Of a stretch of 64,000 nucleotides of DNA, positions 1 to 58,152 are shown piece after piece; the first letter of the stretch is position 1, and the number at the start of each line of letters is the position of its first letter. Below the pieces are notes generated by a model that had not been told where the DNA came from, made no database searches, and worked only from the letters and a program-made list of their open reading frames with translations. Source of the DNA: Escherichia coli (GTDB lineage Bacteria > Pseudomonadota > Gammaproteobacteria > Enterobacterales > Enterobacteriaceae); the NCBI RefSeq assembly GCF_041886205.1, contig NZ_CP169029.1, one strand, 5' to 3'. The translations under genes were made by a program, and so were the position numbers.

Positions 1-1
1 T

Positions 2-556
2 ATGACCGCTCAAGTGCTGGCGCAAGAGCACTCGCAACCGCAGCTGATTGTTCTGCATCTGATGGGCTCGCATCCGCAGGCCTGCGACCGGACACAAGGC
101 AAATATGAAACCTTTGTGCAATCGAAAGAAACGTCGTGCTATCTCTATACTATGACGCAAACGGACGATTTACTGCGCAAGCTGTACGATCAGTTACGCA
201 ACAGCGGCAGCAGCTTCTCGCTGGTTTACTTTTCTGACCACGGTCTGGCCTTTAAAGAGCGCGGCAAAGACGTGCAATACCTTGCCCATGATGATAAATA
301 TCAGCAAAATTTCCAGGTGCCTTTTATGGTCATTTCCAGCGACGATAAAGCGCATCGTGTGATTAAAGCCCGCCGCTCAGCCAATGACTTCTTAGGCTTT
401 TTCTCCCAGTGGACGGGAATTAAAGCGAAGGAAATTAACATCAAATACCCGTTTATATCTGAGAAGAAAGCCGGGCCGATATACATCACCAACTTCCAGT
501 TACAGAAGGTGGATTACAACCATCTCGGAACCGATATTTTCGACCCGAAGCCTTAA
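2..556 (+). CDS. opgE: Phosphoethanolamine transferase OpgE/YbiP, C-terminal part (5' end outside window)
   Basis: ORF runs from window edge; sulfatase-type motifs (LHLMGSHP, YFSDHGL); conserved position next to ompX; followed by a bidirectional terminator. Confidence 0.8.
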   Translation: MTAQVLAQEHSQPQLIVLHLMGSHPQACDRTQGKYETFVQSKETSCYLYTMTQTDDLLRKLYDQLRNSGSSFSLVYFSDHGLAFKERGKDVQYLAHDDKYQQNFQVPFMVISSDDKAHRVIKARRSANDFLGFFSQWTGIKAKEINIKYPFISEKKAGPIYITNFQLQKVDYNHLGTDIFDPKP

Positions 557-560
557 AAAC

Positions 561-590
561 AAAAAATCCGCCCCGAGAGGCGGATTTTTT
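561..590. terminator. Bidirectional rho-independent terminator between opgE and ompX
   Basis: Perfect 12-bp stem aaaaaatccgcc / ggcggatttttt around a 6-nt loop; A-run on one side and T-run on the other, so it works on both strands. Confidence 0.65.
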
Positions 591-605
591 ATATCACCAA
601 AGTGA

Positions 606-1121
606 TTAGAAGCGGTAACCAACACCGGCAATCCAGGTGCCTACGTCAACGCTACGAATACGGCTCTGCTCGTAAGAGAAGTCAAGAGCAACGTTTTCCA
701 TCGGGTTGAACTGCAGACCAGCACCGTAGGAGAAACCGTAGTCGCTGGTGTCGTGTTTGTAGGTCGGGTATTCAGTGGTCTGGAATTTACCATAACCCAC
801 ACCCACTACACCGTAGATGCTTGCCCAGTCGTTAATGCGGTAAGCCGGACCAGCAGTGATGCCGTAGTACTGGTTTTTGTTGTAGTCACCAGAGCTTGCA
901 GTACGGCTTTTCTCGGTGTAAGTGAAAGAACCGATCACACCCAGCGGGCTGTTGTCTTCTTCATAGCGGTATTTCAGGTTGAAACCGCCCATTTTGTTCA
1001 TTTTGCCCTGAGCGTCGCTCTGTGCGTAACCGCCAGTTACGGTAGAAGTCGCAGCTACGGAAGTACCTGCGGTAAAAGCCAGAACTGCGGCCAGTGCTGA
1101 AAGACATGCAATTTTTTTCAT
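606..1121 (-). CDS. ompX: Outer membrane protein X (8-stranded beta-barrel)
   Basis: Translation MKKIACLSALAAVLAFTAGTSVA... ending ...GVGYRF with terminal Phe, recognised as OmpX; start taken at MKK rather than the ORF-track MVMKK. Confidence 0.95.
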   Translation of the reverse strand: MKKIACLSALAAVLAFTAGTSVAATSTVTGGYAQSDAQGKMNKMGGFNLKYRYEEDNSPLGVIGSFTYTEKSRTASSGDYNKNQYYGITAGPAYRINDWASIYGVVGVGYGKFQTTEYPTYKHDTSDYGFSYGAGLQFNPMENVALDFSYEQSRIRSVDVGTWIAGVGYRF

Positions 1122-1473
1122 AACCACCTCAAATGTGATTCAAATAAGTCCTAAGTTTTAAATATATCAAAAATTAATGGGAAACTCTTCGCGATTTGTG
1201 ATGTCTAACGGGCCATTTCATGTAACAGAACGTTTCCATACACCGCTATCCATCTAAATTTAAATCACTTTTTCATAGAACTGCGTAAGTATTACGCATG
1301 TTTTCCCTGTCATTCATCCAGATTATTCCTAATCACAAGACTAATGATTCCATCAATCCTGGCGCATTTTAGTCAAAACGGGGGAATTTTTTTTCAACAA
1401 ATGCTCAACCAGCATTGGGTATATCCAGTACACTCCACGCTTTACTTAGGTTTAGATATTTGTGGGAGAAAGG

Positions 1474-2361
1474 ATGCCTGGTTCATTACGTAAAATGCCG
1501 GTCTGGTTACCAATAGTCATATTGCTCGTTGCCATGGCGTCTATTCAGGGTGGAGCCTCGTTAGCTAAGTCACTTTTTCCTCTGGTGGGCGCACCGGGTG
1601 TCACTGCGCTGCGTCTGGCATTAGGAACGCTGATCCTCATCGCGTTCTTTAAGCCATGGCGACTGCGCTTTGCCAAAGAGCAACGGTTACCGCTGTTGTT
1701 TTACGGCGTTTCGCTGGGTGGGATGAATTATCTTTTTTATCTTTCTATTCAGACAGTACCGCTGGGTATTGCGGTGGCGCTGGAGTTCACCGGACCACTG
1801 GCGGTGGCGCTGTTCTCTTCTCGTCGCCCGGTAGATTTCGTCTGGGTTGTGCTGGCGGTTCTTGGTCTGTGGTTCCTGCTACCGCTGGGGCAAGACGTTT
1901 CCCATGTCGATTTAACCGGCTGTGCGCTGGCACTGGGGGCCGGGGCTTGTTGGGCTATTTACATATTAAGTGGGCAACGCGCAGGAGCGGAACATGGCCC
2001 TGCGACGGTGGCAATTGGTTCGTTGATTGCAGCGTTAATTTTCGTGCCAATTGGAGCGCTTCAGGCTGGTGAAGCACTCTGGCACTGGTCGGTTATTCCA
2101 TTGGGTCTGGCGGTCGCTATTCTCTCGACCGCTCTGCCTTATTCGCTGGAAATGATTGCCCTCACCCGTTTGCCAACACGGACATTTGGTACGCTGATGA
2201 GCATGGAACCGGCGCTGGCTGCCGTTTCCGGGATGATTTTCCTCGGAGAAACACTGACACCCATACAGCTGCTGGCGCTCGGCGCTATCATCGCCGCTTC
2301 AATGGGTTCTACGCTGACAGTACGCAAAGAGAGCAAAATAAAAGAATTAGACATTAATTAA
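1474..2361 (+). CDS. rhtA: Threonine/homoserine exporter RhtA (DMT superfamily)
   Basis: Polytopic membrane protein MPGSLRKMPVWLPIVILLVAMASIQGG...; start taken at internal ATG of the GTG-initiated track ORF; backbone synteny. Confidence 0.9.
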   Translation: MPGSLRKMPVWLPIVILLVAMASIQGGASLAKSLFPLVGAPGVTALRLALGTLILIAFFKPWRLRFAKEQRLPLLFYGVSLGGMNYLFYLSIQTVPLGIAVALEFTGPLAVALFSSRRPVDFVWVVLAVLGLWFLLPLGQDVSHVDLTGCALALGAGACWAIYILSGQRAGAEHGPATVAIGSLIAALIFVPIGALQAGEALWHWSVIPLGLAVAILSTALPYSLEMIALTRLPTRTFGTLMSMEPALAAVSGMIFLGETLTPIQLLALGAIIAASMGSTLTVRKESKIKELDIN

Positions 2362-2371
2362 ATTTACATTT

Positions 2372-2397
2372 CTGCATGGTTATGCATAACCATGCAG
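2372..2397. other. Perfect 26-bp palindrome downstream of rhtA (terminator or operator-like)
   Basis: ctgcatggttatgcataaccatgcag is its own reverse complement; sits between the rhtA stop and the dps regulatory region. Confidence 0.35.
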
Positions 2398-2515
2398 AAT
2401 TTCTCGCTACTTTTCCTCTACACCGTCTTTATATATCGAATTATGCAAAAGCATATTTATTCCGAAAATTCCTGGCGAGCAAATAAATAAGAATTGTTCT
2501 TATCAATATATCTAA

Positions 2516-3163
<648 letters not shown>

Positions 3164-3203
3164 ATCCATCGCTGATGGTGCAGAACTTTTAGTACCCGAT
3201 AAA

Positions 3204-3236
3204 AGCGGCTTCCTGACAGGAGGCCGTTTTGTTTTG
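3204..3236 (+). terminator. Rho-independent terminator of dps
   Basis: Stem cggcttcctg / caggaggccg (one G-U wobble) followed by ttttgtttt. Confidence 0.5.
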
Positions 3237-3497
3237 CAGCCCGCCTCAACGCACTTATTTAGTGCATCCTTCTGCTATCCCCAGCTGATTAAGTAAATTT
3301 TTTGTATCCACATCATCACACAATCGTTACATAAAGATTGTTTTTTCATCAGGTTTTACGCTAAATAATCACTGTGTTGAGTGCACAATTTTAGCGCACC
3401 AGTTTGGTGCCCCAGAATGGTGCATCTTCAGGGTATTGCCCTATAAATCGTGCATCACGTTTTTGTCGCATCTAGAAAAATCAATGAGTTGCAAAAC

Positions 3498-3515
3498 TGG
3501 CACGATTTTTTCATA
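3498..3515 (+). promoter_or_regulatory. Sigma-54 type promoter upstream of glnH (glnHp2-like)
   Basis: TGGCAC-N5-TTTCA resembling the -24/-12 sigma-54 consensus, about 55 bp upstream of the glnH start. Confidence 0.45.
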
Positions 3516-3552
3516 TATGTGAATGTCACGCAGGGGATCGTCCCGTGGATAG

Positions 3553-4314
<762 letters not shown>

Positions 4315-4375
4315 TAACGCTACGCCTGTAAGGCGCACTGGCAGTTCCCTCTCCCCTCTGGGGAGGATCTATTAA

Positions 4376-4407
4376 GTTCTGTTGATGTCAACTGATTTCA
4401 ACAGAAC
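4376..4407. other. Inverted repeat at backbone/island junction
   Basis: gttctgttga...tcaacagaac arms around a 12-nt spacer, immediately before the integrase gene; could be a glnH terminator or a junction/att-related structure. Confidence 0.3.
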
Positions 4408-4542
4408 TCTATCCTCTCCATTAAATCTCCTTTAAAATAAGGCATTATCAGAAATTACTCCTCTCTGGATGTCAACCATCCTCCATGAACATCAAGATGA
4501 TTTCGGGGGCTATTGTGGGGGCTACTTTTCGGGGTTAACATC

Positions 4543-5715
4543 ATGCCACTTACTGTTCGACAAATTGAGTCGGCTAAACCCGCTGACAAGGATTACAAAC
4601 TTTCCGACGGTCAGGGACTTTATCTTCTTGTCAAAAAATCCGGCGCCCGTTACTGGAATCTGAAGTACCGGTTTGCCGGTAAGGAAAAGAAACTGGTGAT
4701 TGGTGTCTATCCGGACATATCTCTGGCTCAGGCTCGTCAGAAACGGGATGAAGCGCGTAAACTCCTGGCTGAAGGAAAAGATCCATCATATGAGAAACAG
4801 GCGCGAAAACTTGCCATCAGGGAAAGTATGGCCTGCACATTTCGCACCATTGCAGAGGAATTACTTACCCATATGGCTCGTCGATGGACAACTGGTTACC
4901 AGGCAGACCAGCGTGCAAGACTTGAAAATCATGTTTTCCCTGCAATTGGGAATCGTCCGGTGACCGGGATCCGCCCCATGGAAATACTGAACGTCCTGAG
5001 AGTTATTGAAGAACAGGGAAAACTTGAAGCACTGCGTAAAACACGCCAGCTCTGTGCGCAGGTTTTTGATTATGCCATAGCAACAGGACGTGCAACCGTT
5101 AACCCGGCGTCAACACTCAGCGGGGTACTGCTTCCTCCTGAAAAACAACAGCGCAGGACACTTTCTGAAGAGCAGATGGGGGCTTTCATGCATCAGATGA
5201 CGGCTTCCGGAAATCTGATGTCGCTGACAACGCGAATGCTGGTTCTTACTGCTGTTCGCACCGGAGAACTGCGGCTGGCGACCTGGGATGAAATAAATTT
5301 CACGGAGGCCCTGTGGGTCATTCCGAAAGAAAGAATGAAAATGCGACGACCGCATGTTGTACCGCTTTCACGTCAGGTACTGGCGTTACTGAAGGAGATA
5401 AAAACACGCACTGAATCGCGTAATTCCGCCTTTATTATTCCCGGGGCATTCAGAAAAGATCGCCCCCGAAGCCGTAAGTGTATCAATGAATTCCTTGAAC
5501 AGTCAGGCTGGCATGCCCTGACAACAGCTCACGGATTTCGTCATACCTTCAGCACCATTCTCCATGACCATGATTTCAGCTCAGCCTGGATTGAACTCCA
5601 GCTTGCCCACGTTGATAAAAACGTCATGCGTGGCACCTATAACCACGCCCAGTATCTGGATGGTCGCCGTGAAATGATGCAGTGGTATGCTGACTACATT
5701 GATTCGCTTTCTTAG
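4543..5715 (+). CDS. P4-type phage integrase (tyrosine recombinase)
   Basis: N-terminus MPLTVRQIESAKPADKDYKLSDGQGLYLLVKKSGARYWNLKYR typical of P4-family integrases; C-terminal catalytic region with HGFRHT and terminal Tyr region. Confidence 0.85.
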   Translation: MPLTVRQIESAKPADKDYKLSDGQGLYLLVKKSGARYWNLKYRFAGKEKKLVIGVYPDISLAQARQKRDEARKLLAEGKDPSYEKQARKLAIRESMACTFRTIAEELLTHMARRWTTGYQADQRARLENHVFPAIGNRPVTGIRPMEILNVLRVIEEQGKLEALRKTRQLCAQVFDYAIATGRATVNPASTLSGVLLPPEKQQRRTLSEEQMGAFMHQMTASGNLMSLTTRMLVLTAVRTGELRLATWDEINFTEALWVIPKERMKMRRPHVVPLSRQVLALLKEIKTRTESRNSAFIIPGAFRKDRPRSRKCINEFLEQSGWHALTTAHGFRHTFSTILHDHDFSSAWIELQLAHVDKNVMRGTYNHAQYLDGRREMMQWYADYIDSLS

Positions 5716-5999
5716 CAAACCTGATGAATCAGTGACATAAAAATAATGAATAACCATCTGGCCCCGAAAGCCGGATGGTTTTATTTATGTTTTCTTTTTT
5801 ATTTGCTCACATCTTCTGAACTTCCCCTGCAGACAATAATCTGAACACCAGATATAGAGCCACTCATGAAACAAAATAGAATTACATTGAATAATAACTT
5901 ACATTTTTTGTTACATTCATTCCATATTTGTCCCTGGTTGATTGCCAGAACTACGCCGTGATGCATGATAGGAGAATTAGATAATAAGAGAAGAAAAGT

Positions 6000-6629
6000 A
6001 TGATTCGGGTAGTGCTGGTGGATGACCATGTGGTGGTGCGCTCTGGCTTCGCACAATTACTCTCTCTGGAAGACGATCTGGAGGTCATTGGTCAGTACAG
6101 TAGTGCCGCGCAGGCATGGTCGGCATTAATCCGTGATGACGTCAATGTTGCCGTCATTGATATTGCCATGCCGGACGAAAACGGCCTCAGTTTGCTTAAG
6201 CGCCTGCGTGCACAAAAACCGCAATTTCGCGCCATTATTCTTAGCATTTATGACGCGCCAACCTTTGTGCAAAGCGCGCTGGATGCCGGTGCCAGCGGGT
6301 ATTTAACCAAACGCTGTGGGCCGGAAGAGTTAGTGCAGGCGGTGCGCTCGGTCGGGCTGGGCGGGCATTATCTCTGTGCCGATGCGATTCGGGCTTTACG
6401 CGGCGGCGGGCAACCCGCCCAGGCGCTGGAAATTCTCACCCCGCGAGAACGTGAAGTGTTTGATTTACTTGTCAAAGGAGACAGCGTTAAAGAGATCGCC
6501 TTTAAACTCGAACTCAGTCATAAAACGGTACATGTGCATCGCGCCAATGTGCTGGGAAAACTGAACTGCCATAGCACCATTGAACTGGTGCATTTTGCGC
6601 TCGACCACCATCTGCTGGCGGGGCATTAA
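6000..6629 (+). CDS. UhpA-like response regulator (NarL/FixJ family, LuxR-type HTH)
   Basis: Receiver domain start MIRVVLVDDHVVVRSGF; C-terminal HTH ...KEIAFKLELSHKTVHVHRANVLGKL; diverged paralog of K-12 UhpA rather than the orthologue. Confidence 0.8.
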   Translation: MIRVVLVDDHVVVRSGFAQLLSLEDDLEVIGQYSSAAQAWSALIRDDVNVAVIDIAMPDENGLSLLKRLRAQKPQFRAIILSIYDAPTFVQSALDAGASGYLTKRCGPEELVQAVRSVGLGGHYLCADAIRALRGGGQPAQALEILTPREREVFDLLVKGDSVKEIAFKLELSHKTVHVHRANVLGKLNCHSTIELVHFALDHHLLAGH

Positions 6630-8170
6630 TGTCGCGCAATCTTCGTCATTGGGTGATTTCGTTGTTTATTGTGCTGGCCTGGGGAACCGGCTGGCTGATG
6701 CTGTGGACGCTCAGCTTTTATCTGACCAATAACGGTCAACAGGCGGCGCTGTTTCTGCCGCACGGGGTTTATCTCGCCCTTCTTATTTTGCTTGCACGCC
6801 GCTACTGGCCTGCGCTGGTGCTCCCCCCTTTGCTGATGATGTTCTGGCTCCATAGCGAACAGCTATTGAACGGTTATATCATGCTGGCAACGCCGGTTAT
6901 TAGCCTGTTTCCTGCCATCCTTGCGCAAAACGTCTGGCACCGTTTTCCACTTTACTGGCAGCGTCTGACGTTACTGTTAGCCACGGTCACAACAGCTTCA
7001 TTGCTGAATACCGCCCTGCTCTCCCCTTTTATGTCAGGCCCAATAATGCTGCCGGGTTTGACCTCATTTACCGGCGGCGTATTACTGACGCCGTTTGTCT
7101 ATCTCATCTTTGAGTTTCTGCGCCAGCAGCATCGCTACCAGCTCCTGGGACTCGATACGCATAATCCCCCCTTGCGTACCTCTTTAATCATCTGGTGTAG
7201 CCTGTTTTTTATTATTGGTATCGGCACTCAGATAGTGCTGTCACCTGAAATTGAACGTCTGCTGTTGATCGTAGTTTTTCTACCCAACGTGGTGATGGCA
7301 TGGAAATTTGGCTGGCAAGGTGGCGTACTCTCCGGGCTTTTGGGCAGCATGATGATCACCATCGCCCGCCAGATTGGCGTGGGCTTTAGTAACCTGGTGG
7401 AGCTGGAGATTTTCCTCGCGACCCAGGCCTTGCTGGGAATTGGCCTGGGCATTGCCATCAGTCGCCAGCAACATCTGGCGCTAAACCTGCACCATTACCG
7501 ACAACGGCTGGAGGCCGAGCTGGCAGCGCGGCGAGCATTGGCGGAAAAGCTGATCCACACCGAGGAGGACACGCGAAAAAACCTGGCGCGAGAGCTGCAC
7601 GACGAAATCGGTCAGAACATCACCGCCATTCAGATCCAGTCGCAACTGGTGAAGCGGGCGCGTGATCCGGCGCAAATTCAATCCGCAGCCAGCCAAATCA
7701 ATGAGCTCGCCCGCCGCATTCATCTCTCCACCCGCCAGTTGCTGCGCCAGTTGCGGCCTCCCGCGCTTGATGAACTGACATTTCGCGAAGCGTTGTTGCA
7801 TCTGATTAATGAATTTGCCTTTAGTGAACGCGGCATTCATTGCCAGTTTGCCTATCAACTGAACTCCACACCAGAAAACGAAACGGTGCGCTTTACCTTG
7901 TATCGGTTATTGCAGGAGTTGCTCAATAACATCTGTAAACACGCCGAAGCCAGCGAAGTGACGATTATCCTGCGCCAGCAGAGAGAGGTATTGCATCTGG
8001 AAGTCAGCGACAACGGTGTGGGGATCGCCAGCGGGAAAATGGCCGGATTTGGCATTCAGGGGATGCGTGAGCGCGTCAGCGCCCTGGGCGGCGACTTAAC
8101 GCTCGAAAAACAGCACGGCACGCGGGTAATTGTTAACTTGCCCACATTTTTGCAACAAATCGCCGGATAA
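6629..8170 (+). CDS. UhpB-like membrane sensor histidine kinase
   Basis: Multi-TM N-terminal half, H-box ...ARELHDEIGQ..., HATPase region; start overlaps upstream stop (TAATG). Confidence 0.75.
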   Translation: MSRNLRHWVISLFIVLAWGTGWLMLWTLSFYLTNNGQQAALFLPHGVYLALLILLARRYWPALVLPPLLMMFWLHSEQLLNGYIMLATPVISLFPAILAQNVWHRFPLYWQRLTLLLATVTTASLLNTALLSPFMSGPIMLPGLTSFTGGVLLTPFVYLIFEFLRQQHRYQLLGLDTHNPPLRTSLIIWCSLFFIIGIGTQIVLSPEIERLLLIVVFLPNVVMAWKFGWQGGVLSGLLGSMMITIARQIGVGFSNLVELEIFLATQALLGIGLGIAISRQQHLALNLHHYRQRLEAELAARRALAEKLIHTEEDTRKNLARELHDEIGQNITAIQIQSQLVKRARDPAQIQSAASQINELARRIHLSTRQLLRQLRPPALDELTFREALLHLINEFAFSERGIHCQFAYQLNSTPENETVRFTLYRLLQELLNNICKHAEASEVTIILRQQREVLHLEVSDNGVGIASGKMAGFGIQGMRERVSALGGDLTLEKQHGTRVIVNLPTFLQQIAG

Positions 8171-8242
8171 CCAGGAAAAAGTCTTAGGTATCCCGGATTT
8201 TCTCTCATCCCCTTTCACTTTCATTTTCATATAGTCAGCAAC

Positions 8243-9559
8243 ATGGAGACAACCATGCACGCGCGTTCAGCGAGAGAAATTAATCAATGCTACCGGACAT
8301 TACGTCCGCGATTGCTGATGTGCATGATTATTGGCTACGCCGCATTTTATCTGACGCGAAAAAGCGTGAATTACGTCCTTCCGGCGCTACAAACCGACCC
8401 CGGACTGGATAAAGGCGACATTGGCCTGCTGGGTTCGCTGTTTTATCTCAGCTACGGATTGTCGAAATTTACCGCCGGACTGTGGCATGACAGCCACGGA
8501 CAACGCGGTTTTATGGGCGTCGGCTTGTTCGCCACCGGGTTATTGAACGTGGTGTTTGCCTTTGGCGAATCACTTACGCTTCTGCTTGTGGTCTGGACAC
8601 TGAACGGTTTTTTTCAGGGCTGGGGATGGCCACCGTGTGCCCGCTTGCTGACCCACTGGTACTCACGCAATGAGCGCGGTTTCTGGTGGGGCTGCTGGAA
8701 TATGTCGATCAACATTGGCGGAGCGATTATTCCGCTGATTAGCGCCTTTGCCGCCCACTGGTGGGGCTGGCAGGCCGCGATGCTGACACCGGGGATAATC
8801 AGCATGGCATTAGGGATCTGGTTAACGCTACAACTCAAAGGCACGCCCCAGGAAGAGGGATTACCGACAGTTGGTCACTGGCGTCACGATCCGCTGGAGT
8901 TACGTCAGGAACAACAAAGTCCGCCGATGGGGCTGTGGCAAATATTGCGCACCACCATGCTGCAAAATCCGCTGATCTGGCTACTGGGCGTCTCTTATGT
9001 ACTGGTTTATGTGATCCGGATTGCGCTTAACGACTGGGGCAATATCTGGCTGACGGAAAGCCACGGCGTCAACCTGCTCAGCGCCAACGCCACGGTAATG
9101 CTGTTTGAAGTGGGCGGCTTACTCGGCGCGTTATTTGCCGGATGGGGTTCGGATTTGCTGTTTAGCGGGCAGCGAGCGCCAATGATTTTGCTGTTCACGC
9201 TGGGGTTGATGGTGTCGGTCGCTGCACTGTGGCTGGCACCGGTTCATCACTACGCGCTTCTGGCAGTGTGCTTTTTTACCGTGGGCTTTTTTGTCTTTGG
9301 CCCGCAAATGCTGATTGGACTTGCGGCGGTGGAGTGTGGGCACAAAGCTGCGGCGGGTTCAATCACCGGATTTCTCGGCCTGTTCGCGTACCTTGGCGCG
9401 GCGCTGGCAGGCTGGCCGCTGTCGCTGATCATCGAACGCTACGGCTGGCCGGGAATGTTCAGTTTACTCTCGGTCGCCGCAGTACTTATGGGTTTACTGC
9501 TGATGCCGTTACTGATGGCGGGCATCACCACCACTCACGCTCGAAGGATAAAACAATGA
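8243..9559 (+). CDS. UhpC-like MFS sugar-phosphate sensor/transporter
   Basis: 12-TM MFS protein with UhpC/UhpT-like N-terminus; stop overlaps next start (ATGA). Confidence 0.75.
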   Translation: METTMHARSAREINQCYRTLRPRLLMCMIIGYAAFYLTRKSVNYVLPALQTDPGLDKGDIGLLGSLFYLSYGLSKFTAGLWHDSHGQRGFMGVGLFATGLLNVVFAFGESLTLLLVVWTLNGFFQGWGWPPCARLLTHWYSRNERGFWWGCWNMSINIGGAIIPLISAFAAHWWGWQAAMLTPGIISMALGIWLTLQLKGTPQEEGLPTVGHWRHDPLELRQEQQSPPMGLWQILRTTMLQNPLIWLLGVSYVLVYVIRIALNDWGNIWLTESHGVNLLSANATVMLFEVGGLLGALFAGWGSDLLFSGQRAPMILLFTLGLMVSVAALWLAPVHHYALLAVCFFTVGFFVFGPQMLIGLAAVECGHKAAAGSITGFLGLFAYLGAALAGWPLSLIIERYGWPGMFSLLSVAAVLMGLLLMPLLMAGITTTHARRIKQ

Positions 9560-10587
9560 AAATGACCTTTACCTCTACTCTGATTGCTTCTGCCGTTGCG
9601 CTGGCGACTTTAACGGGTGCCGCGCAGGCGAAAGGCCGGCTGGTGGTCTATTGCAGCGCCACCAATGAAATGTGTGAAGCTGAAACCAAAGCGTTTGGCG
9701 AGAAATATGATGTAAAAACCTCGTTTATCCGCAACGGCTCCGGTAGCACCCTGGCAAAAGTCGATGCTGAAAAGAAAAACCCCCAGGCTGACGTCTGGTA
9801 CGGCGGCACTTTAGACCCGCAGTCGCAGGCCGGCGAGATGGGCCTGTTACAGGCATATAAATCGCCTAACCTTGAGCAGATCAGAAAACAATTCCGCGAT
9901 CCGGCAAAAGTGAAGGGAAACCTGTCCTCCGCCGTTTATGTGGGGATCCTCGGGTTTGGCGTCAACACCGAGCGTCTGAAAGAGAAAAACCTGCCTGTGC
10001 CGAAGTGCTGGAAAGATCTCACCAAACCTGAATATAAAGGTGAAATTCAGATTGCCGATCCACAAAGTTCCGGTACCGCCTACACCGCGCTGGCTACCTT
10101 TGCGCAACTGTGGGGGGAAGAGCAGGCCTTTGATTATCTCAAACAACTGAACGCCAATATCTCCCAGTACACCAAATCAGGCATTGCCCCGGCACGTAAC
10201 GCCGCCCGTGGCGAAACGGCGATTGGTATTGGTTTCCTGCATGACTACTCGCTGGAAAAAGAACAGGGCGCACCACTGGAGTTGATTTCCCCGTGTGAAG
10301 GTACGGGCTACGAAATTGGCGGCGTCAGCATTCTGAAAGGTGCGCGCAACCCCGACAACGCCAGACTGTTCGTGGACTGGGTATTATCAAAAGAAGCTCA
10401 GGAACTGGCGTGGAAGAAAGGGAAATCTTATCAGATCCTGACCAACACCACCGCCGAAACGTCGCCAAATTCGCTGAAGCTTGACGATCTGAAATTAATC
10501 AACTACGACATGGACAAATATGGTTCCACGGATGTTCGTAAGGCATTGATTAATAAATGGGTCAGCGAAGTGAAAATGGGTAAATAA
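9556..10587 (+). CDS. afuA: Periplasmic binding protein of AfuA/FbpA family (sugar-phosphate or ferric ABC uptake)
   Basis: Signal peptide MKMTFTSTLIASAVALATLTGAAQA; family 1 SBP fold sequence; start chosen at ATG 9556 rather than the upstream GTG ORF; linkage to permease and ATPase. Confidence 0.75.
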   Translation: MKMTFTSTLIASAVALATLTGAAQAKGRLVVYCSATNEMCEAETKAFGEKYDVKTSFIRNGSGSTLAKVDAEKKNPQADVWYGGTLDPQSQAGEMGLLQAYKSPNLEQIRKQFRDPAKVKGNLSSAVYVGILGFGVNTERLKEKNLPVPKCWKDLTKPEYKGEIQIADPQSSGTAYTALATFAQLWGEEQAFDYLKQLNANISQYTKSGIAPARNAARGETAIGIGFLHDYSLEKEQGAPLELISPCEGTGYEIGGVSILKGARNPDNARLFVDWVLSKEAQELAWKKGKSYQILTNTTAETSPNSLKLDDLKLINYDMDKYGSTDVRKALINKWVSEVKMGK

Positions 10588-10654
10588 ACCAGCATTATTT
10601 GTACTTACCGGGGCAGCACAGACGCCTGCCCCGGTCAACCATACCGGAGCTGCT

Positions 10655-27514: not shown

Positions 27515-28603
27515 TTAGAACTGGTAGGTCATACCAACAGCAACGATATCGTCAGTGCTTATACCGAGTGCTTTAGTGAAGTCGTTTTTGTCAAGCAGGT
27601 TGATTTTGTAATCAACGAAAGTAGACATATTTTTGTTGAAGTAATAGGTTGCACCTACATCAACATATTTGACTAAGTCCTGATCGCCCCATACTCCAAG
27701 ATCCTTACCTTTAGATTGCAGGTAAGCAACGGACGGACGCAGACCAAAATCGAACTGATATTGTGCAACAGCTTCAAAGTTCTGAGCTTTATTAGCAACG
27801 AAGTGATCAGCAAATACAGTCATATTCTGAGTTTCAGAATAGGTAGTGGCCAGGTAAATGTTATTAGCGTCATATTTCAGACCTGCGGCCCAAACTTCTG
27901 CATTTTTACCGGAAGCAAATACTTCAGGAAGAACTTTCCCTGCATTAACTTGAGTGTCGGTACGATCAGATTTCGCATAAGTTGCACCAATACCAAATCC
28001 TTCGTATTCATAGGTAGCAGAGAAACCGAAGCCATCACCATTAGCTTCAGTTACGTCAGTTCGGTCATTTTTACCCTGATACTGAGCAGCAAAGTTCAGA
28101 CCATCAACCAGACCAAAGAAGTCGTTGTTACGATAGGTTGCAACACCAGTGGTGCGACCAGTCATGAACACATCTGTTTGGGTCCAGGTATCGCCACCGA
28201 ATTCTGGCAGAACGTCGGTCCATGCACCGATATCGTATGCTACACCGTAGTTACGGCCATAATCGATGGAGCCGTAGTCACCGAATTTCAGGCCAGCGAA
28301 GGCAAGACGGGTTTTATCTTTGGAAGAACCTTGAGATTCAGCACGGTTGCCTTTGAAGTCATATTCCCACTGACCGAAACCAGTCAGTTGATCGTTGATT
28401 TGGGTTTCACCTTTAAAGCCCAGACGAGCATAAGTAGTGTCACCATCATCTGCATCGTTAGAGGAGAAGTAGTGCTTAGCATTAACTTTTCCGTACAGAT
28501 CCAGTTTGTTACCGTCTTTGTTATAGATTTCTGCAGCTTGAGCAGACACTGCCATCAGAACAGATGCTGCAACCACAGAAAGTGCCACTGTAATTTTTTT
28601 CAT
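27515..28603 (-). CDS. General porin of the OmpC/OmpF/PhoE (GBP) family
   Basis: Signal peptide [39 protein letters not shown] start of mature porin, C-terminal ...VAVGMTYQF; start at ATG 28603 rather than the longer track ORF. Confidence 0.85.
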
Positions 28604-29336
28604 TTTTTTTGCCTTTAAAGTTGAACTTTTCAATAGAAAAGAAGTCACTCCGAATAAATATCTATAATTTTTGTATTTAAGTTTCAAGTTTTGCACATTA
28701 GTATTGAGATATTTTTGTGATTAAAATCACAAAAATATCACCATAAAACCAATGGATTATTAGAAAAGAATTAATTCAGTGAATAACAACTCGAGTAGGC
28801 AGCTTGGCGCTACGACTTATCATGGTCTGTAATTACCTTTATAAAACAAACAATGTTATTGCTTTCAGTTGGTTATATGGCACGTTCAGCTCAACCCCGT
28901 AAACACAAACCATCTCCACAGAGAAGTCAACTTCCCCACTATGTCGCAAAACTTCACGAAGATGATTTTTTGACGAAGAAGAGACCGAAGTGCATCGCTT
29001 TGATAATTTTGATGGTGCGGTGGCGTATTACACAAACCTGAATATTTCGTTCTTTGTGGATACCGGAAACAAAAAGTGGGTCTTCTGGTTTGTCCGTGTC
29101 GATGACGAGGGTTATCTAGAGACAACCTGATGTGAGGAGCGGTAATTCTCGACTATTCTTGCAGCTATCACTGCCAGTGGCATGTGCAGCCCAAACAGCG
29201 GTACGGTTCACTGACCGGACAGTGTAACCCCGATATTCAGAGACTTCCCCGTTTTGCCGATATTTTTCAGCAGGGGATCCGCTGGATTAACTGGTTGAAT
29301 AAACAGCCAGAAGCTTCTGTGTGTCCGGTGATGATT

Positions 29337-31081: not shown

Positions 31082-33295
31082 TTATTTTTTAGATAAATCA
31101 AATCGGTCATTATTCATGACTTTATTCCAAGCATTAGCAAAATCATGAATAAACTTATCTTGAGCATCATCTGACGCGTAAACTTCAGCTACAGCCCGTA
31201 ATTCAGGATTTGAACTGAATATTAAATCTACAGAGGAAGCTTTCCATTTAAGAGTACCGCTCTTACGGTCATATCCATTATAGACATCCTCATCTTTATC
31301 TGATTTGCTCCAGTAGGTTCCCATATCCAGAAGATTCACAAAAAAATGATTATTCAGCGTACCCGGAGTCTCAGTAAATACCCCGAGAGAAGAATGATTA
31401 GTATTAATATCCATAACACGCAATCCACCTAACAGCACTGTCATTTCTGGAACAGTTAGATCAAGTTTACTCGCTTTATCAATCAGACTTTCAACAGGTG
31501 AAGTATGGTTCCTGTTTTTTGCATAATAGTTTCTGAAGCCATCTGCAGTAGGCTCCAGAAAACTGAATGATGTAATATCTGTCTGTTCCTGAGAAGCATC
31601 AGTTCTTCCTGGTTTGAATGGGATTTCTAGTTTTACACCTGCTTTAGCAGCTGATTCTTCGATAGCAGTATTACCCGCCAGTACAATTAAATCAGATAGT
31701 GAGACTTTCTTCCCATTAGACTGCTTTTTATTAAATTCTGACTGTAATGAAACCAGGGATGTCAACACCGTTTTCAAATTTTCAGGTTCATTGACTTCCC
31801 AATTTTTTTCTGGCAGCAAGCGGATACGGGCACCATTATTTCCTCCTCGATAATCAGTTACACGAAATGTCGAGGCTGAAGCCCAAGCAGTTTTTATCAG
31901 ATCAGAGGACGGAATTCCTGACTTAATGATCTGCATCTTGAGGGATTTTATATCCTGACTATCGATCATAGTGTAATCAGCAGCAGGAAGTGGATCCTGC
32001 CAGATAAATGATTCTTTCGGGATGTTATTACCTATGTATCGGGTTGCCGGCCCCATATCGCGATGAGTCAGTTTGAACCACGCTCTTGCAAATGCTCTCT
32101 CAAAGGCTTTCGGATCGTTCAGGAAATGCGTCGTTATTTTTTTATATTCAGGATCGACTTTCAACGCAATATCTGTTGTAAACATCATTAGCGGATGCAA
32201 TACCGATGGGTCATGTGCATCCTGAACAATGTTTGCTGCGTTTTTAGGTTTCCACTGATAAGCACCGGCAGGACTTTTATGCAGTTCCCACTCATATTTA
32301 TAAAGATTTTGTAGATACTGCATCGTGAATTGCGTAGGAGAGGTGGACCAAGCACCTTCCAGACCACTAGTGATAGTATCTTTACCGTTGCCGGTACCGC
32401 ACTTATTCTTCCATCCCAGTCCCTGTTCTTCGACTGGTGCACCATCAGGTGCAGCACCAATGCATTTTTCAGGAGAAGCGGCACCATGTGCTTTTCCGAA
32501 CGTGTGCCCGCCAGCAATGAGCGCAACAGTTTCTTCATCATCCATGGCCATACGGGCGAAGGCTTCCCGGATATCTTTCGCAGAGGCAAGAGGATCTGGG
32601 TTTCCCCCCGGACCTTCTGGATTGACATAAATCAGGCCCATCTGAGTGGCTGCCAAGGGTTTCTGAAGTTTCCCGTTTTTATCTCTATTATCGGATAGAG
32701 GTTTGTTACCTGGTCCCCAGTATACCAAGTCGGACTCCCAGTCATCTTCTCTTCCACCGGCAAATCCCAGAGTCTTAAATCCCATAGATTCCAGAGCAAC
32801 ATTCCCTGTAAGAACCATTAAATCTCCCCAAGAAATACTAGCGCCGTATTTTTTTTTGACCGGCCACAACAATCTGCGAGCTTTATCCAGATTAGCATTG
32901 TCCGGCCAACTATTAAGAGGTTCAAAACGCTGTTGACCACCACTTGCTCCTCCTCGTCCATCATATGTCCGATATGTCCCGGCACCATGCCACGCCATTC
33001 GAATAAAGAAAGGGCCATAATTACCATAATCTGCTGGCCACCACTCCTGAGAGGTTGTCAATAATACTTTTATATCATTTTTAACATTTTCTATATCAAG
33101 TTTATTAAATTTGCTGGCATAATCAAAATCACGTCCTAAGGGGTTTGATTCAGGACTGTGTAATCTCAAAGGAGTTAAATCCAGCGTTTCAGGATAGTAG
33201 AATTTCTCAGTCCCCTTTTTATCATTAGCCACAGCAGGAGAGAGACTACCAGAGAGAGTCAAAAGAATTAAAATTGGAAGAGTTCTTTTTATCAT
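31082..33295 (-). CDS. katP: Periplasmic catalase-peroxidase (KatG family, KatP-like)
   Basis: 737 aa; signal peptide [23 protein letters not shown]; motifs [13 protein letters not shown] and [17 protein letters not shown] upstream of ATG 33295. Confidence 0.9.
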
Positions 33296-34508
33296 AGAGT
33301 TGCTCCAGTGCAAGGAAAAATCTCAGCATATATACAAAAGATATTTTTCATATGCAACAGGAACCAACTATCATTGAAATCGGTTTTATGAATCAGTTTA
33401 TCACTTTAAATATTTTAAAGAATCACTCATATATATCATATTTTGTGATGTGCTTTGAACTCTTCTCGCTCTAAATCCCCGACACTTTTCTTTATAAAAC
33501 AGTTAAAATAAACAGTATCAATAAGTTATTTGCCAATATTTGAGTGTTACATATTTATTTGGTATCTATTGATTAATATTTCTATATTTAATATATCCTT
33601 ATTTGTTATCTCATGTTTACTCCTTTATAAAATATAATTCTGTTTTATTGATATAAACAAAAAATGAGTAAATATAACATAGACAGAATATTAATACATT
33701 CAAAAAAAATACAATAATATTTATACGGTCTTGTATTTTATTCTTTTTTGTTGTTGCTAGTGGTGCATCCTGTTATTTAATTAATATAGGGATGGTGAAT
33801 TTAATATTTTTGCACAAAATATCATGATAGCACATGCAATAGAAGATCATCAGAGTTAATCTTTTGTGTTGTCTTTTTTACTAGTTATATTTCTGGAGCA
33901 GGTATAAATGAGTTATAAAAATAACTAACACCAGTGAATGAGTGAGTCTCTCCTGAAAAAAATAGTATTGAACACGACTGTTATATCTGATTACATGAAT
34001 TCTAAAATGAGATGATAAATGGAGTAAACTTATGAAATTAAAGTATCTGTCATGTATAATATTTTCCATCTCTGGCGATGGGGCATTAGTTCTGCCCCAG
34101 TTTTCTAATTTTTCATGACGTGTCAGCGAAATAGTAATGACACTATTTACACAATGAACTCCGCAGTTTTTCATACTCTTTGAACAATGTACGTTTGGTT
34201 TTGTAGCCATATTTATCCATTAACATAACTATCCATACAGAATATTTTCCCTCAGTTTTTTCAAGATTAAAGAAAGTATCGCATTCTTCCACCATCAACG
34301 TTCGACAGTCTGATAGCGCTTGTAAAATGACTTCACCAATACTCTGATTATCAGCCTTCGGTGGAAATAAGTGCGAAGGAAAGAGAGGAGCAGCAGCAAC
34401 CATCCCCTCCTTGTCAACGACGGGTAAAAAGTTGCTCTTCCGCAACTTGGGTGGATATTTTCATGCCAGTGGACTCATGCCCCTCTGCCTAAGTAGTTCA
34501 AATCCGGC

Positions 34509-47878: not shown

Positions 47879-48364
47879 CTAATTATTCAGAGGATAAGCT
47901 TTTGAAAAATCATTGTACGTTTCATGAAGATGATAAAATTTTGCATCAGGGTCATTTTTCAGTTCTTCATATCTTTTCATCAGTTTTTTGAATAACCCCT
48001 CTGGTACAGGATAAGGATCTGTCTCATTTTTTGCACAGTAAAAATAGAAAAGCGCCTTTTCAAGCTCTGCAAGAGTTATATTATCCGCATTGCTTGTCAA
48101 ATACTCAAAGGCGTAAGACCACTGTTCTGACAATAATAAGAAATTCAGCGCCGAACCTTTAATAAAAACACCATCAATGTTATTTGAATTAAGTATTTTT
48201 TTACAAAATGACAGCCCCCCCCTCGAATCTTTAACTAATAAATTACTGAGACACTCTAACGCATCATCCTCTGGGTCGTTAAAAGAGTTAGCCTCTACAT
48301 AGCCATTAGCCAGGTAACTTTCTAAACCTTCAATATCCTTTGCGGTACTATTCACATTTATCAT
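47879..48364 (-). CDS. cdiI: CdiI immunity protein cognate to the full-length CdiA toxin
   Basis: 161-aa ORF; ATG overlaps the cdiA stop (ATGA) at 48361..48364. Confidence 0.7.
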
Positions 48365-51300
48365 TTGAATGTCCCCGTATTAACAGTTGAAAGTCTTTTC
48401 GTGCCATCAGGTAATATTGTCCATGTAGCATAAATCCTTACGTTACCGTTAGGCCCTGATACAACAACAGATGTTTTTCTATTTGCAGATGTAGCCCCCT
48501 GAGCTGAGTCCAATAACTTATCCATTATCATGCTGTTATTACTGGCAGTATTCACTATACCTGCTTGTTCTAATACACGAGCCATATCTTGAGAACGCTC
48601 AATATTATGGATTTGTTTTTCTAATACTTCCATCCTTTTAGCATTGTTTGGATCTTTTGCAAATTCTTTTTGGCTGCTAATCCTTGCATCTTTTAAAGAA
48701 TTATATTCTGCTTGCAAAGAATCAAGGTCACCAGAAGCTTTACCACGCATATATAGTTCAATCTTATCGACAGGTATTTTAGCATCACCTTTTACAGCCG
48801 TGATGTGATTTTTCCCATTTGCATCTGGAAGTGAGCTAACCTCGAAACTATTAGACAAGCGTTGTTTACCAGCCAGAACTTCTATCTTACTGGCCGCCGC
48901 AGCACCTATTACTGGTGCCATCGAAGCAGCTACAACTTTCATTCCATCATAAGTTTCAACGTATGCCTGTGCCGTCGCCCTATCGACCCCAAACTGCACC
49001 ATGGCATAGTTCACCATCGCATCCTTCACCTGTTGTTGATTTTGTGCATCAACACTGGTGATATTCAGCAGGTTTACTATCTGCCCGTAAGCATCCGGAT
49101 ACATATCGCTGACTTGGTTATTGTAGTGTCCGGTTTCATAACCTCCTTTAGCTGCAATAACCTTCAGTCTTTCACCGGCACAAGCTGCGCTGGCTGCCTG
49201 TCCGTTACTGCACGCAGTGATTACTGCCTTATCACTGCTGATATCTTTTTCAAGCAATGCATCATATTTCTGCTGTGCCTTTTCACGCTCTGCCGGATCT
49301 TTACTGTTTTTAAGCTTCTGTTTTGCTATCTCAAGCTCTGTCTTTTCAGACACGCTAAGATAATTATTCTCAACCGAGTTCCTGCCTGCCTGTGCCCCCG
49401 TACCGGCAGCACTTGTACTGTTGCCTGCAAGTCCCCCCGCAATACCTGAAGCAATGGTGGCCAGCATGCTGATTTGCTGACGTTCCTGTTCACTCAGGTT
49501 ATCGGTACGACCACCGTAGTAGTTATCAATGATATACCGGGCTGCAAGTTCACCGCTGAATGCCCCCGCAGCACCGGAAGCCGCATTGTTTCCGCCCAGT
49601 TGTGCGGCAAGTGCTCCCCAGACTGCGTGAGCCATCAGGTTTGCTTCCCGGTTATCGCCGGTGGCCTGTTTTATAAGCTGTGCCACTGCCGGATTCAGAC
49701 CGCCAGCCAGTACCTGCCCCGGATTCCCTGCATTCAGTCCGCCCAGCACGCCCGTGATGGCCTGTACCACCATCTGCGGCGTACTGCCCGTACCGTAGCC
49801 TTTCATGACCTCTCTGTATTCCGGAGTCTCCCGCAACTGTGCATCGCTCATGCCAGGATGCTCTTTCCTGGCTGCTTTCATCGCTTCAGTTTCGCCATAC
49901 GTCATGACGATGTTACTCATCTGACCGCTAACCTGGCTGATAACCTGCGCTTCCTGCAGACGCTTCTGCTCTTTCTCCCTGTCAAATATCGGTGCAATGC
50001 TGCCGTTGGCATTTTCCGGGTCCCGGCTGAGCCCGGCAATATCCTGCTTCTGACTCTCCTGATCACGGATAATGAGATTTCCGCCGCTGATGGCGGATGA
50101 CGTGGTACCTTCAGCATGTCCACTGCTGCCGGACATACCGGTAAGTGCGTTCGCCGCACCGGCTATTGCATTTGAGGCCACCATCTGGCTGGCTGACATC
50201 CCTGAGCCACCCGATAAACTGATTCCTGTATGGCTGGCTTTATAGTCTGCCTGGTTATGGATATCCGACCAGCCCAGCGTGCCGGTACTGAGGCTGTTTT
50301 TGTCATCCGTTGCCGTGGACGCAATTACCGCACCATTGAGCTGAGTGTGATTCCCCACAGTGACATCAAACCCGTCTTTTCCGGCGTAGATACCACTCTG
50401 TTCCCGGACAGAATCATAATTGCTTTTAATTTTGTCCTGACTGATGCTGGCATAGCCGCTGCCGGACATTGAGCCAAACGTGAAGCTTCCACCTGCGGCC
50501 ACGCTGTTCTGTCTGCTGTCGTAACGGTCACTGTCCTGAAGGCTCGAAATGGTCAGGTTGTTGCCGACATCTGCTGTGACTTTCTCGCCACTGACCTGAG
50601 CCCCCGACAGGGTGGTATCATGTCCGCTTGTGAGGGAGACATTTTTACCCGCATCCACCGTGGTTTCGGTCCAGGTGGTACCGTTGCCTTTCTCCCTGCC
50701 CTCTGAACCATTGATACCGGCGAAGATACTGAGGCCTCCGCCATTGGTTCCACCACCAAAGCTGACGCCCACGCCGCCACCTTTGCTGCTGTTCTTCCCG
50801 GTGGTCTGTCGGGTGTCAGCGGCGGCAGCCAGCAGAATATCGTTCTGTGCATTCAGGCTGGTGTCATTGCCGGACTTAATCTGGCTCCCGGTAATGAGAA
50901 TATCGCCGCTGTTGTTATGGTCCTTATTTTTCCCCGTGGCAGTGACAGAGACATTGTTACCGGCGCTGAGGGTTGAGCCGGAGACGATATCGTGCTGATA
51001 TTTCGTCTCAGACTTCGACTGCTGATGGTTGAGCGAAATGCTCACGCCGATACCATTATTCGGGTCAGCACTCTGTTGCTGCAGTCCGTGGTTAACACCG
51101 GCCTGTACACCGGACAGAACCGCCTGTGTTCCTTTCAGTACCGCCAGACGGCTGTCGCTGGTTTCTTTCGCCTCCCGGGCCATGGTGGCAGCATTATTGA
51201 TGGCACTGCCCACCGTGCCGGAAAGGGCAACCGTCAGCCCGCTTTTCTTCTGCTCAAATTTTTCGTCCACAGTACGACGGTCATGCCCCGGGTCAACCAC

Positions 51301-57300: not shown

Positions 57301-58140
57301 GGTGATATCGCCATCGCGGGCATAAAGGTTACCAAGATTAACCCCGACACCACTTTCAGTGGAGGTCAGATGAATACGCCTGGCGTACATTCCACCGAGC
57401 GCGCCGGTATCAACGGCAACTTTCGGCACATCACCTTCGCCCTTCAGTGCACTGACACGACCATCTGCAGTTATCCGGTTAGCGCCTGCAGTGACAGTTA
57501 AATCCTTCGCATGAAGCGCGGCATTCACTTCCGTTGCACGGGCAATAATGGATACGGCATCGCTCCGGGTGCCGTCCAGGCCCGCGCCATTGATGGTGAT
57601 ACTGCCTTCAGTCACCTCCAGCGCCTGCAGGCTGCCGTCGGCATTCATCACAGGTCTGCCTGTGGTGAGCGTCGCGTGCGGCGTGTTGATAAAACCACAG
57701 CCGTCACAGGTGATACCATACGGGTTGGCAACCATCACATTCGCCGCTTTGCCGGCCACTTCCGTATAGCCCTGCAGCAGTGAACGGTTACCGCCGGTCA
57801 CTTCGTTGATGATACCCTTCGCTTCCCCGCCCGCTTTCAGGTTCGGGTTATTCTGTATCAGTCCACCAAGCTGCGTCGGATTAAGCTTAGCGGTGGCATT
57901 ATTGAGAATCAGCCCTTCCTTCCCGACGTTGTAATCCGTAAACCGGTTATGCGAAATCCCGGCCCCGTTCGGCGTGGCAATGTTCACGACCGGCACACCA
58001 TTTGCCGCTTTATCCATTCCGGCCCCGTTTTGTGGGGTGATGACGGCCCCCACAGCCGGTAACAACGGCTGCCCGGCGATAATCGCACTGACCAGGTAAC
58101 TCAGCAGGCGGTAAGTGAAGTGAACGGGAGGCTGATTCAT
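48361..58140 (-). CDS. cdiA: CdiA contact-dependent inhibition exoprotein (two-partner secretion TpsA, 3259 aa)
   Basis: Extended signal peptide and TPS domain (...[26 protein letters not shown]...), long FHA-type repeat region, pretoxin ...GRNSVENN (VENN codons 49363..49374), 333-aa C-terminal domain; SD AAGGGA before ATG. Confidence 0.95.
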
Positions 58141-58152
58141 GGTAATAATCCC

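Follow-up and report, generated by a model that had tools for sequence, protein, structure and literature searches.

Enterobacterial islands with P4-type integrases are found at tRNA genes (pheV, pheU, selC, leuX, thrW, argW and others), and a tRNA or tmRNA 3' end as attB is typical of the class without strictly defining it. Integrases that use attB sites outside tRNA genes, sometimes splitting or modifying a gene or an operon, are those of SGI1 (trmE), GIsul2 (guaA) and CPZ-55 (eut operon) and the dusA-specific enzymes; each of them recognizes one conserved gene end. Dispersed palindromic targets are used by IS1397 and ISKpn1 (repetitive extragenic palindromes, REP, and bacterial interspersed mosaic elements, BIME) and by IS110-family elements, which are about 1-2 kb long and encode DDE or DEDD transposases. 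Integrases of the CTnDOT type, a different lineage from Bacteroides, tolerate heterology in the overlap. PAISt of Streptomyces turgidiscabies is a large pathogenicity island (PAI) inserted site-specifically at an 8-bp palindrome, TTCATGAA, at the 3' end of bacA (PMC4057263). In Escherichia coli itself, Biggel et al. (2020, PMC7686366, Supplementary Fig. 5) reported PAIs at two novel sites, gln and ula, and described the integrases as site-specific; Royer et al. (2021, PMC8097792) mentioned an insertion between glnH and glnP. Neither direct repeats nor an att core or palindrome were found to be mentioned in the text and supplements of these two papers, nor did the searchable literature yield any other paper on the gln/ula insertion sites or any description of an att core, a palindrome or multi-site use. 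Here we describe a gln-site island in a stretch of 64,000 nucleotides of E. coli DNA (contig NZ_CP169029.1, assembly GCF_041886205.1; the whole stretch is called the window below). The best explanation, which we hold to be very probable, is that the island was inserted site-specifically into the glnH-glnP spacer by its own integrase, at the palindrome of a dispersed repeat.

The chromosomal side of the junction is undisturbed. The opgE-ompX-rhtA-dps-glnH block (window 1-4400), whose order a first-pass annotation had called intact, is colinear with E. coli strain 2/0 in a single alignment at 98.3% identity. Its last gene, glnH (3568-4314, + strand), recognized from its open reading frame (ORF), the annotation of matching genomes and its SBP_bac_3 domain, is intact and retains its own upstream region. 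The integrase ATG (4543) follows after a spacer of 228 bp (4315-4542), in agreement with the approximately 230 bp given before, in place of glnP. When positions 3900-5000 were compared with 5,426 complete RefSeq E. coli genomes, the backbone homology to about 5,400 of them ended at 4365, so that the first 51 bp of the spacer are backbone; only 18 genomes extend past this position into the integrase, and the best match over the junction is 95.5%. The homology stops immediately 3' of a palindrome, CTCCCCTCTGGGGAG (4351-4365), the actual target, which the first-pass annotation had overlooked. The window junction reads TTCCCTCTCCCCTCTGGGGAG followed by GATCTATTAAG; in an island-free genome TTCCCTCTCCCCTCTGGGGAG is followed by AGGATTAGGGTGAGGGGCGC, and glnP begins 139 bp after glnH. 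This uninterrupted glnH-glnP spacer is present in 5,402 of the 5,426 complete genomes. Comparison with island-free strains thus delimits an attL core, the 15-bp palindrome CTCCCC-TCT-GGGGAG at 4351-4365, which is the left half of the dispersed repeat. It is preceded by the native, glnH-proximal part of the spacer (4315-4350, + strand), which is identical to empty-site genomes and includes the left flank of the repeat element as well as a small hairpin (4321-4337) that was both listed and folded. The island starts with GATCTATT directly 3' of the palindrome. Its left arm, the P' arm of attP, runs from GATCTATTAAG to the integrase start (4366-4542, + strand) and islands at gln, yjdP, lptG, ycjD, gabT and ulaE share it from the very first base. 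The stretch common to the attL core and the attP of the island is TCCCCNNNGGGGAG (4352-4365).

ARAGORN found no tRNA or tmRNA gene in the 64-kb window, there is no credible Rfam match in 3400-6100, and neither glnP, a true glnQ nor right-flank DNA occurs in the window. The sole GlnQ match there (12763-13455) was rejected, being a 40%-identical, unrelated ABC ATPase. The earlier observations that no tRNA adjoins the integrase, that glnP and glnQ are missing where they are expected and that at least 59 kb of accessory DNA follows (the island body occupies at least 59.6 kb, from 4366 to 64000, where it runs off the window) are therefore borne out; a tRNA gene or glnP in the junction was looked for computationally and did not turn up.

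The integrase, a protein of 390 residues (4543-5715, + strand), has the architecture Arm-DNA-bind_3, Phage_int_M, Phage_integrase, with the motifs RTGELR, HGFRHTF and RGTY. The arm-binding domain (DUF4102, PF13356) was detected in residues 3-87 (E = 4.5e-28), the central SAM-like domain (PF22022) in residues 100-194 (E = 4e-28), and the catalytic tyrosine-recombinase domain (R...HxxR...Y, PF00589) with E = 5e-21. The P4-type label given to it at first thus holds for its domain architecture, although the tRNA or tmRNA attB usual for the class is absent; the score against NCBIfam PRK09692, 271 bits for a cut-off of 434, shows that the protein is no equivalog of that model. About 20 nt 5' of the ATG stand two direct GGGGGCTA repeats (4505-4512 and 4517-4524, + strand), which may be arm-type binding sites of the integrase. 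The window has no second such pair; three related islands have a comparable one 60-90 nt inward from their right ends. A terminator-like hairpin (5752-5780, + strand) follows the gene.

Among species-representative genomes, no relative more than 55% identical was found outside E. coli, the closest integrases of other species being 41-55% identical; these more distant enzymes were used as a tRNA-adjacent control and not as a source of additional sites. In 48 of 60 such relatives a tRNA gene (Phe, Arg, SeC, Asn, Gly, Thr or Ser) ends 165-400 nt upstream on the same strand, and most of the others have tRNA 3' fragments. Like the window, all of them carry a pair of repeats of the GGGGGC type close to the 5' end of int. 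The P4-type islands at tRNA genes and the island described here thus share domain architecture, paired upstream repeats and an integrase gene that lies at the edge of the island, some 170 nt from the core, and points towards the interior; the window clade differs from them in having no adjacent tRNA. The best match to a phage integrase, at 43% identity, is uninformative about the site. As judged by these sequence comparisons, the clade is a genuine exception within a tRNA-targeting integrase family.

Strain 2/0, a urinary tract isolate whose gln-site island carries papGII, has an integrase 97% identical in amino acids to that of the window and an island of about 58 kb between glnH and an intact glnP-glnQ. 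TCCCCGCCGGGGAG is present at both ends of this island, as a 14-bp direct repeat: attL reads TTCCCTCTCCCCGCCGGGGAG followed by GATCTATT, and attR reads ...CACTAT, TCCCCGCCGGGGAG, then AGGATTAGGGTGA. When the left flank, one copy of the repeat and the right flank are joined, the resulting 260 nt match many island-free genomes, Nissle 1917 among them, at 100% identity. A direct repeat together with restoration of the empty site was found in strain 2/0, DLI.5a and G8/2452. The right end of the window's own island lies beyond base 64000, and its attR and the following glnPQ are deduced from these relatives; it would read (T)CCCCNNNGGGGAG-AGGATTAGGGTGAGGGG and then continue into glnP. The right-end module of the related islands (DUF4942, CbtA/CbeA, antirestriction) is of a kind found in other E. 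coli islands. In strain 2/0, a copy of ISEc10 (IS21 family) lies 146 nt inside the right end of the gln island, on the glnP strand (L008 20484-20700), and could supply read-through transcription into glnPQ.

These data bear on the second possibility raised by the first-pass annotation, namely that a chromosomal rearrangement (an inversion, a translocation or an event mediated by an insertion sequence, IS) had moved the island beside glnH, with the integrase as a passenger and the original tRNA site left elsewhere. The island is indeed rich in IS66, IS21 and ISL3 copies, and its distal part, 99.7% identical to the pheV-tRNA island of strain EC28, indicates that cargo has been shuffled by recombination. 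Yet no IS is present at the junction, and no tRNA fragment is found upstream of int, where relatives have recognizable tRNA 3' ends. Moreover, many independent lineages have the junction at one and the same nucleotide, and the seven loci occupied by the clade always show the same core. Since a direct repeat whose removal with the island restores the empty site exactly is what conservative site-specific insertion leaves behind, and since glnPQ are intact at the far end of the strain 2/0 island, rearrangement was rejected: it is highly improbable as an account of the locus and essentially refuted for the left junction. The other possibility raised at the outset, an unusual non-tRNA site, proved to be the right one, with a palindromic core shared by all junctions of this integrase clade. 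The site is unusual in not being a tRNA gene; as a point of insertion it is not new, insertion between glnH and glnP having been published (PMC7686366, PMC8097792).

In the core, CTCCCC-NNN-GGGGAG, two palindromic arms enclose a 3-nt centre (6+3+6). Its 13-nt motif CCCCNNNGGGGAG is rare: a single locus of the window has it (on both strands, being palindromic), against a chance expectation of 0.06; one further copy, not at an att site, was found in 318 kb from other E. coli loci, and 665 kb from loci of other enterobacteria contained no copy. The 81-nt spacer element that surrounds the core has a median of 10 matches per E. coli genome, with a maximum of 23, and folds into a stem-loop, the native glnH-glnP spacer having a folding energy of -50 kcal/mol (z = -2.6). 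The repeat may be BoxC. BoxC repeats are short, GC-rich, imperfectly palindromic and extragenic. In K-12, BoxC is present in 22-32 copies of 50-56 bp (PMC2267715). The spacer element fits this family, hence the term BoxC-like used here.

The same core was found at every junction of the clade, and the same repeat element is present at the yjdP-phnP, tusA, lptG, ycjD and gabT sites. The exact integrase protein of the window is recorded in 258 blocks of a public assembly collection, at two different loci. The second of these is the yjdP-phnP spacer, where, downstream of yjdP, the protein and the left arm follow GGTCCCCTCGCCCCTCTGGGGAG (GCCCCTCTGGGGAG); the native spacer, which bears the repeat element, reads GCCCCTCTGGGGAGAGGGTTAGGGTGAGGGGG. 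One identical integrase of the CM2 type, 96% identical to that of the window and belonging to an island of more than 50 kb, is found at glnH and downstream of lptG and of ycjD (next to sapF). A metagenome contig places an integrase 95% identical between gabT and gabP, and downstream of tusA the right end of an island abuts the chromosome, with TCCCCTCTGGGGAG directly followed by AGGGTTAGGGTGAGGGG. Lastly, a sister clade, with integrases 82% identical in amino acids to that of the window, occupies codons 15-20 of ulaE, at CTCCCCGCCGGGGAG; the 14-bp repeat is present at the right ends of these islands too. When metagenomes were scanned for the left end of the island with the left half-core unspecified, 10 junctions were recovered, all with CC(C/T)CNNN before GGGGAG. 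The core thus recurs in several copies of the repeat and, as we suppose by coincidence, within ulaE, and the integrase clade would therefore use at least seven chromosomal sites.

Around the yjdP-phnP site, a second copy of the core, CCCCAATGGGGAG, lies within CGCCCCTCACCCCAATGGGGAGAGGGAG, 63 nt upstream of the copy that is used (L014 9748-9760; L129 ~1445-1460), and is unoccupied. This suggests that the flanks or the centre matter in addition to the 13-nt motif. Similarly, one ulaE attL on a metagenome contig (L120) reads CTCCTC-AGC-GGGGAG, with a mismatch in the chromosome-derived half-site that reflects either tolerance of an imperfect palindrome or later mutation.

The ulaE site has several properties of its own. 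It shares only the 15-bp core with the repeat element, and it is the most frequently occupied site. Its integrases, about 100% identical to each other, are found in opposite orientations: int adjoins ulaD in DLI.5a and the body of ulaE in strain 2452. The site is symmetric at 8 of 9 positions on each side, and this near-symmetry would allow insertion in either orientation. The repeat-element sites are asymmetric, and at all six of them the orientation of the island relative to the element is identical. Insertion in ulaE removes the first 14-20 codons; annotators call shortened ulaE ORFs of 271-274 aa that start in or near the island end, and a small hybrid ORF spans attR (ulaE-site ORFs: L004 2188-3003; L117 44602-45426; L100 1498-1701).

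The distribution of sites allows two other explanations to be weighed. According to the first, RecA-dependent homologous recombination between copies of the repeat would spread the island, for example after transfer of a chromosomal segment, the integrase being inactive or irrelevant. That the target is a multi-copy repeat and that the flanks of the islands at intergenic sites keep 20-35 nt of repeat sequence would be in keeping with this. These shared flanks, however, reach at most the minimum that efficient RecA recombination needs, and ulaE, with only its 15-bp core, is nevertheless the site most often occupied, and in both orientations. The integrase ORF is also intact, with 94-100% identity across sites, and the arm repeats are conserved on both arms. 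We regard this explanation as improbable. According to the second, the glnH-glnP spacer would contain an unrecognized small RNA or tRNA-like gene, and the tRNA rule would be broken only in appearance. The stable folding of the native spacer, and the fact that P4-type att cores usually overlap a stem-loop, the T-arm of a tRNA, could be read in this way. Neither ARAGORN nor Rfam gave a match, though, and the same core is used inside the coding sequence of ulaE and in repeat copies of unrelated context and orientation; the recognized unit is therefore the palindrome and not a gene, which leaves this idea hardly credible.

The sequence at the ends of the islands also indicates where strand exchange may take place. 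In the attR of DLI.5a, the left half-site carries an island-derived T (TCTCC), and the sequence to the right of GGGGAG is island-derived in every attL; because of these two observations, exchange appears to be confined to CC-NNN-GGGGAG. The central triplet of attL follows the local chromosome, and TCT, TAT, TTT, GCC, GGC and AGC were all found; in NZ_CP070393.1, the gln site itself has a TAT centre. In strain 2/0 and DLI.5a, for which both ends of a single island could be read, the same native centre stands at each end, and the centres agree as well in G8/2452, where the two ends come from different strains. The centres would fit either a 7-bp overlap (CC-NNN-GG) with matching attP variants or a tolerance of heterology.

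Taken together, these observations point to the following course of events. The window contains the attL of an island of at least 59.6 kb that would have entered the glnH-glnP spacer by conservative site-specific recombination, catalyzed by its own tyrosine integrase of P4 architecture (4543-5715). The chromosomal target would be the 14-15 bp palindrome (C)TCCCC-NNN-GGGGAG, the central stem-loop of a BoxC-like intergenic repeat, and not a tRNA gene. The attP of the circular island probably holds the same core, flanked on both arms by paired GGGGGCTA arm-type repeats, in the order arm sites, core, arm sites, int. Strand exchange inside CC-NNN-GGGGAG would put a copy of the core at either end of the island and change nothing else in the backbone. 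As a consequence, glnH and its promoters would be separated from glnPQ by the length of the island, and expression of glnPQ would be affected.

Several points weigh against this interpretation. The centre varies from site to site (TCT, TAT, TTT) even when the integrase and the left arm are identical, and a simple model with a fixed attP does not predict native centres. The right end of this island is outside the window, its attR and glnPQ being predicted from relatives, and every draft assembly with the identical integrase is interrupted some 11 kb inside the island. Exact-match scans of the JGI metagenomes and IMG/VR gave no match to the attP junction of an excised circle, a form that is rarely assembled. 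At gln, a single orientation is seen, and a search for the reverse insertion, made with a chimeric query, found none. Finally, the name BoxC rests on copy number and not on a match to the consensus.

The first-pass annotation had found no tRNA-like sequence near the junction, only an inverted repeat at 4376-4407. The repeat exists, with 16-nt arms that are 88% complementary (4375-4390 and 4393-4408), but it lies inside the island, is dispensable and is not the att core. As a recognition element it was rejected: sister islands that occupy several sites (integrases 96-99% identical) lack one arm and keep only the right part, CTGATTTCAACAGA. GGGGAGGAT, at the junction (4359-4368), is complementary to ATCCTCTCC, 45 nt further in (4411-4420), and 4315-4420 as RNA folds into a long hairpin around the inverted repeat of 4375-4408 (-41 kcal/mol, z = -5.6). 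The 3' end of the glnH transcript would therefore bear a strong structure unlike the native one.

Behind the integration module the island is of mosaic composition; copies of IS66, genes for a catalase-peroxidase and a porin, and cdiBAI are among its contents. The first cargo module (6000-13791, + strand) directly follows int and encodes a UhpA-like regulator (6000-6629), a UhpB-like kinase (6629-8170) and a UhpC-like major facilitator superfamily transporter (8243-9559), then the binding protein (9556-10587), the fused (double) permease of 692 residues (10655-12733) and the FbpC-like ATPase (12745-13791) of an ABC transporter, all on the + strand. The transporter presumably resembles the AfuABC-type sugar-phosphate uptake systems. 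A long GTG-started ORF (9229-10587) that would overlap the UhpC-like gene by 330 nt was discarded as an artefact of the ORF listing, identical contigs starting the gene at 9556. The same Uhp/ABC module is found behind the ulaE-site integrases, at about 87% nucleotide identity, and is the constant first cargo of the gln- and ula-type islands. Further cargo includes an AraC-like regulator, an AphA-like phosphatase, a type VI secretion system fragment and a helicase, and copies of IS66, IS21 and ISL3 are abundant. Two genes, both on the - strand, are extra copies of housekeeping-type functions: a KatG-like catalase-peroxidase (31082-33313; 1206 bits to PRK15061) and an OmpC/PhoE-like porin (27515-28696). 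A complete contact-dependent inhibition locus (47879-59919, - strand) consists of cdiB (58153-59919), cdiA (48361-58140; 3,259 residues) and a small cdiI-like ORF (47879-48364), all on the - strand. It is colinear with the annotated cdiBAI of strain EC28, which is located there in the pheV-tRNA island.

Over its last 4 kb the window is 99.7% identical to that EC28 island, and its tail matches, at 100% identity, another strain in which this integrase is missing. What the window and the papGII island of strain 2/0 have in common is limited to the integrase region and IS66 copies; cargo is therefore freely exchanged behind a constant integration module. Compared with the gln-site papGII+ PAI of Biggel et al. 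(2020), the island described here has the same position, the same kind of integrase (97% amino acid identity to that of strain 2/0) and the same mosaic character; it differs in having no pap operon in its first 59.6 kb, no tblastn match to PapC or PapG being found in the window, although the unseen remainder could hold one.

In contrast to SGI1, GIsul2, CPZ-55 and the dusA-specific integrases, where one integrase is tied to one gene end, a single integrase is found here at several unrelated loci that share a short palindrome or repeat. In using a multi-copy extragenic palindrome as a landing pad, the clade resembles IS1397, ISKpn1 and the IS110-family elements, and the presence of a short shared motif beside a variable centre is reminiscent of the att sites of CTnDOT, although tolerance of heterology is only suggested here by the native centres. 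With PAISt (PMC4057263) it shares the insertion of a large PAI at a short palindrome; PAISt uses a single gene, bacA, in an unrelated host, and not a dispersed repeat.

An island at glnH was thus already known. What would be new, and is well supported by comparison, is that a P4-type clade has been retargeted to the palindrome of a repeat, with at least seven sites and both orientations at ulaE. For the full scenario we lean somewhat towards acceptance: a P4-type integrase clade, seen here only in E. coli, would have switched from tRNA genes to the BoxC-like palindrome, and large pathogenicity or fitness islands would thereby have gained a landing pad of at least seven sites, several of them inside operons (glnHPQ, gabDTP, ulaABCDEF), with a variable 3-bp centre that is tolerated or copied, and with symmetric sites that accept the island in both orientations.

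Searches for islands in E. coli concentrate for the most part on the surroundings of tRNA genes. The 14-bp core (TCCCCNNNGGGGAG, then GATYTATT) lets islands of this kind be found, delimited and typed in any assembly; it accounts for the gln and ula 'novel sites' of invasive uropathogenic lineages and predicts the yjdP, lptG, ycjD, tusA and gabT sites, which were found occupied. The clade would be a naturally occurring example of a tRNA-type integrase that has exchanged its target for a repeated palindrome, which bears on the evolution of att specificity and possibly provides a tool for multi-site integration. For the bacterium, insertions of this family split glnPQ, gabP or ulaEF from their promoters or start codons and may thereby alter the use of glutamine, GABA or ascorbate.

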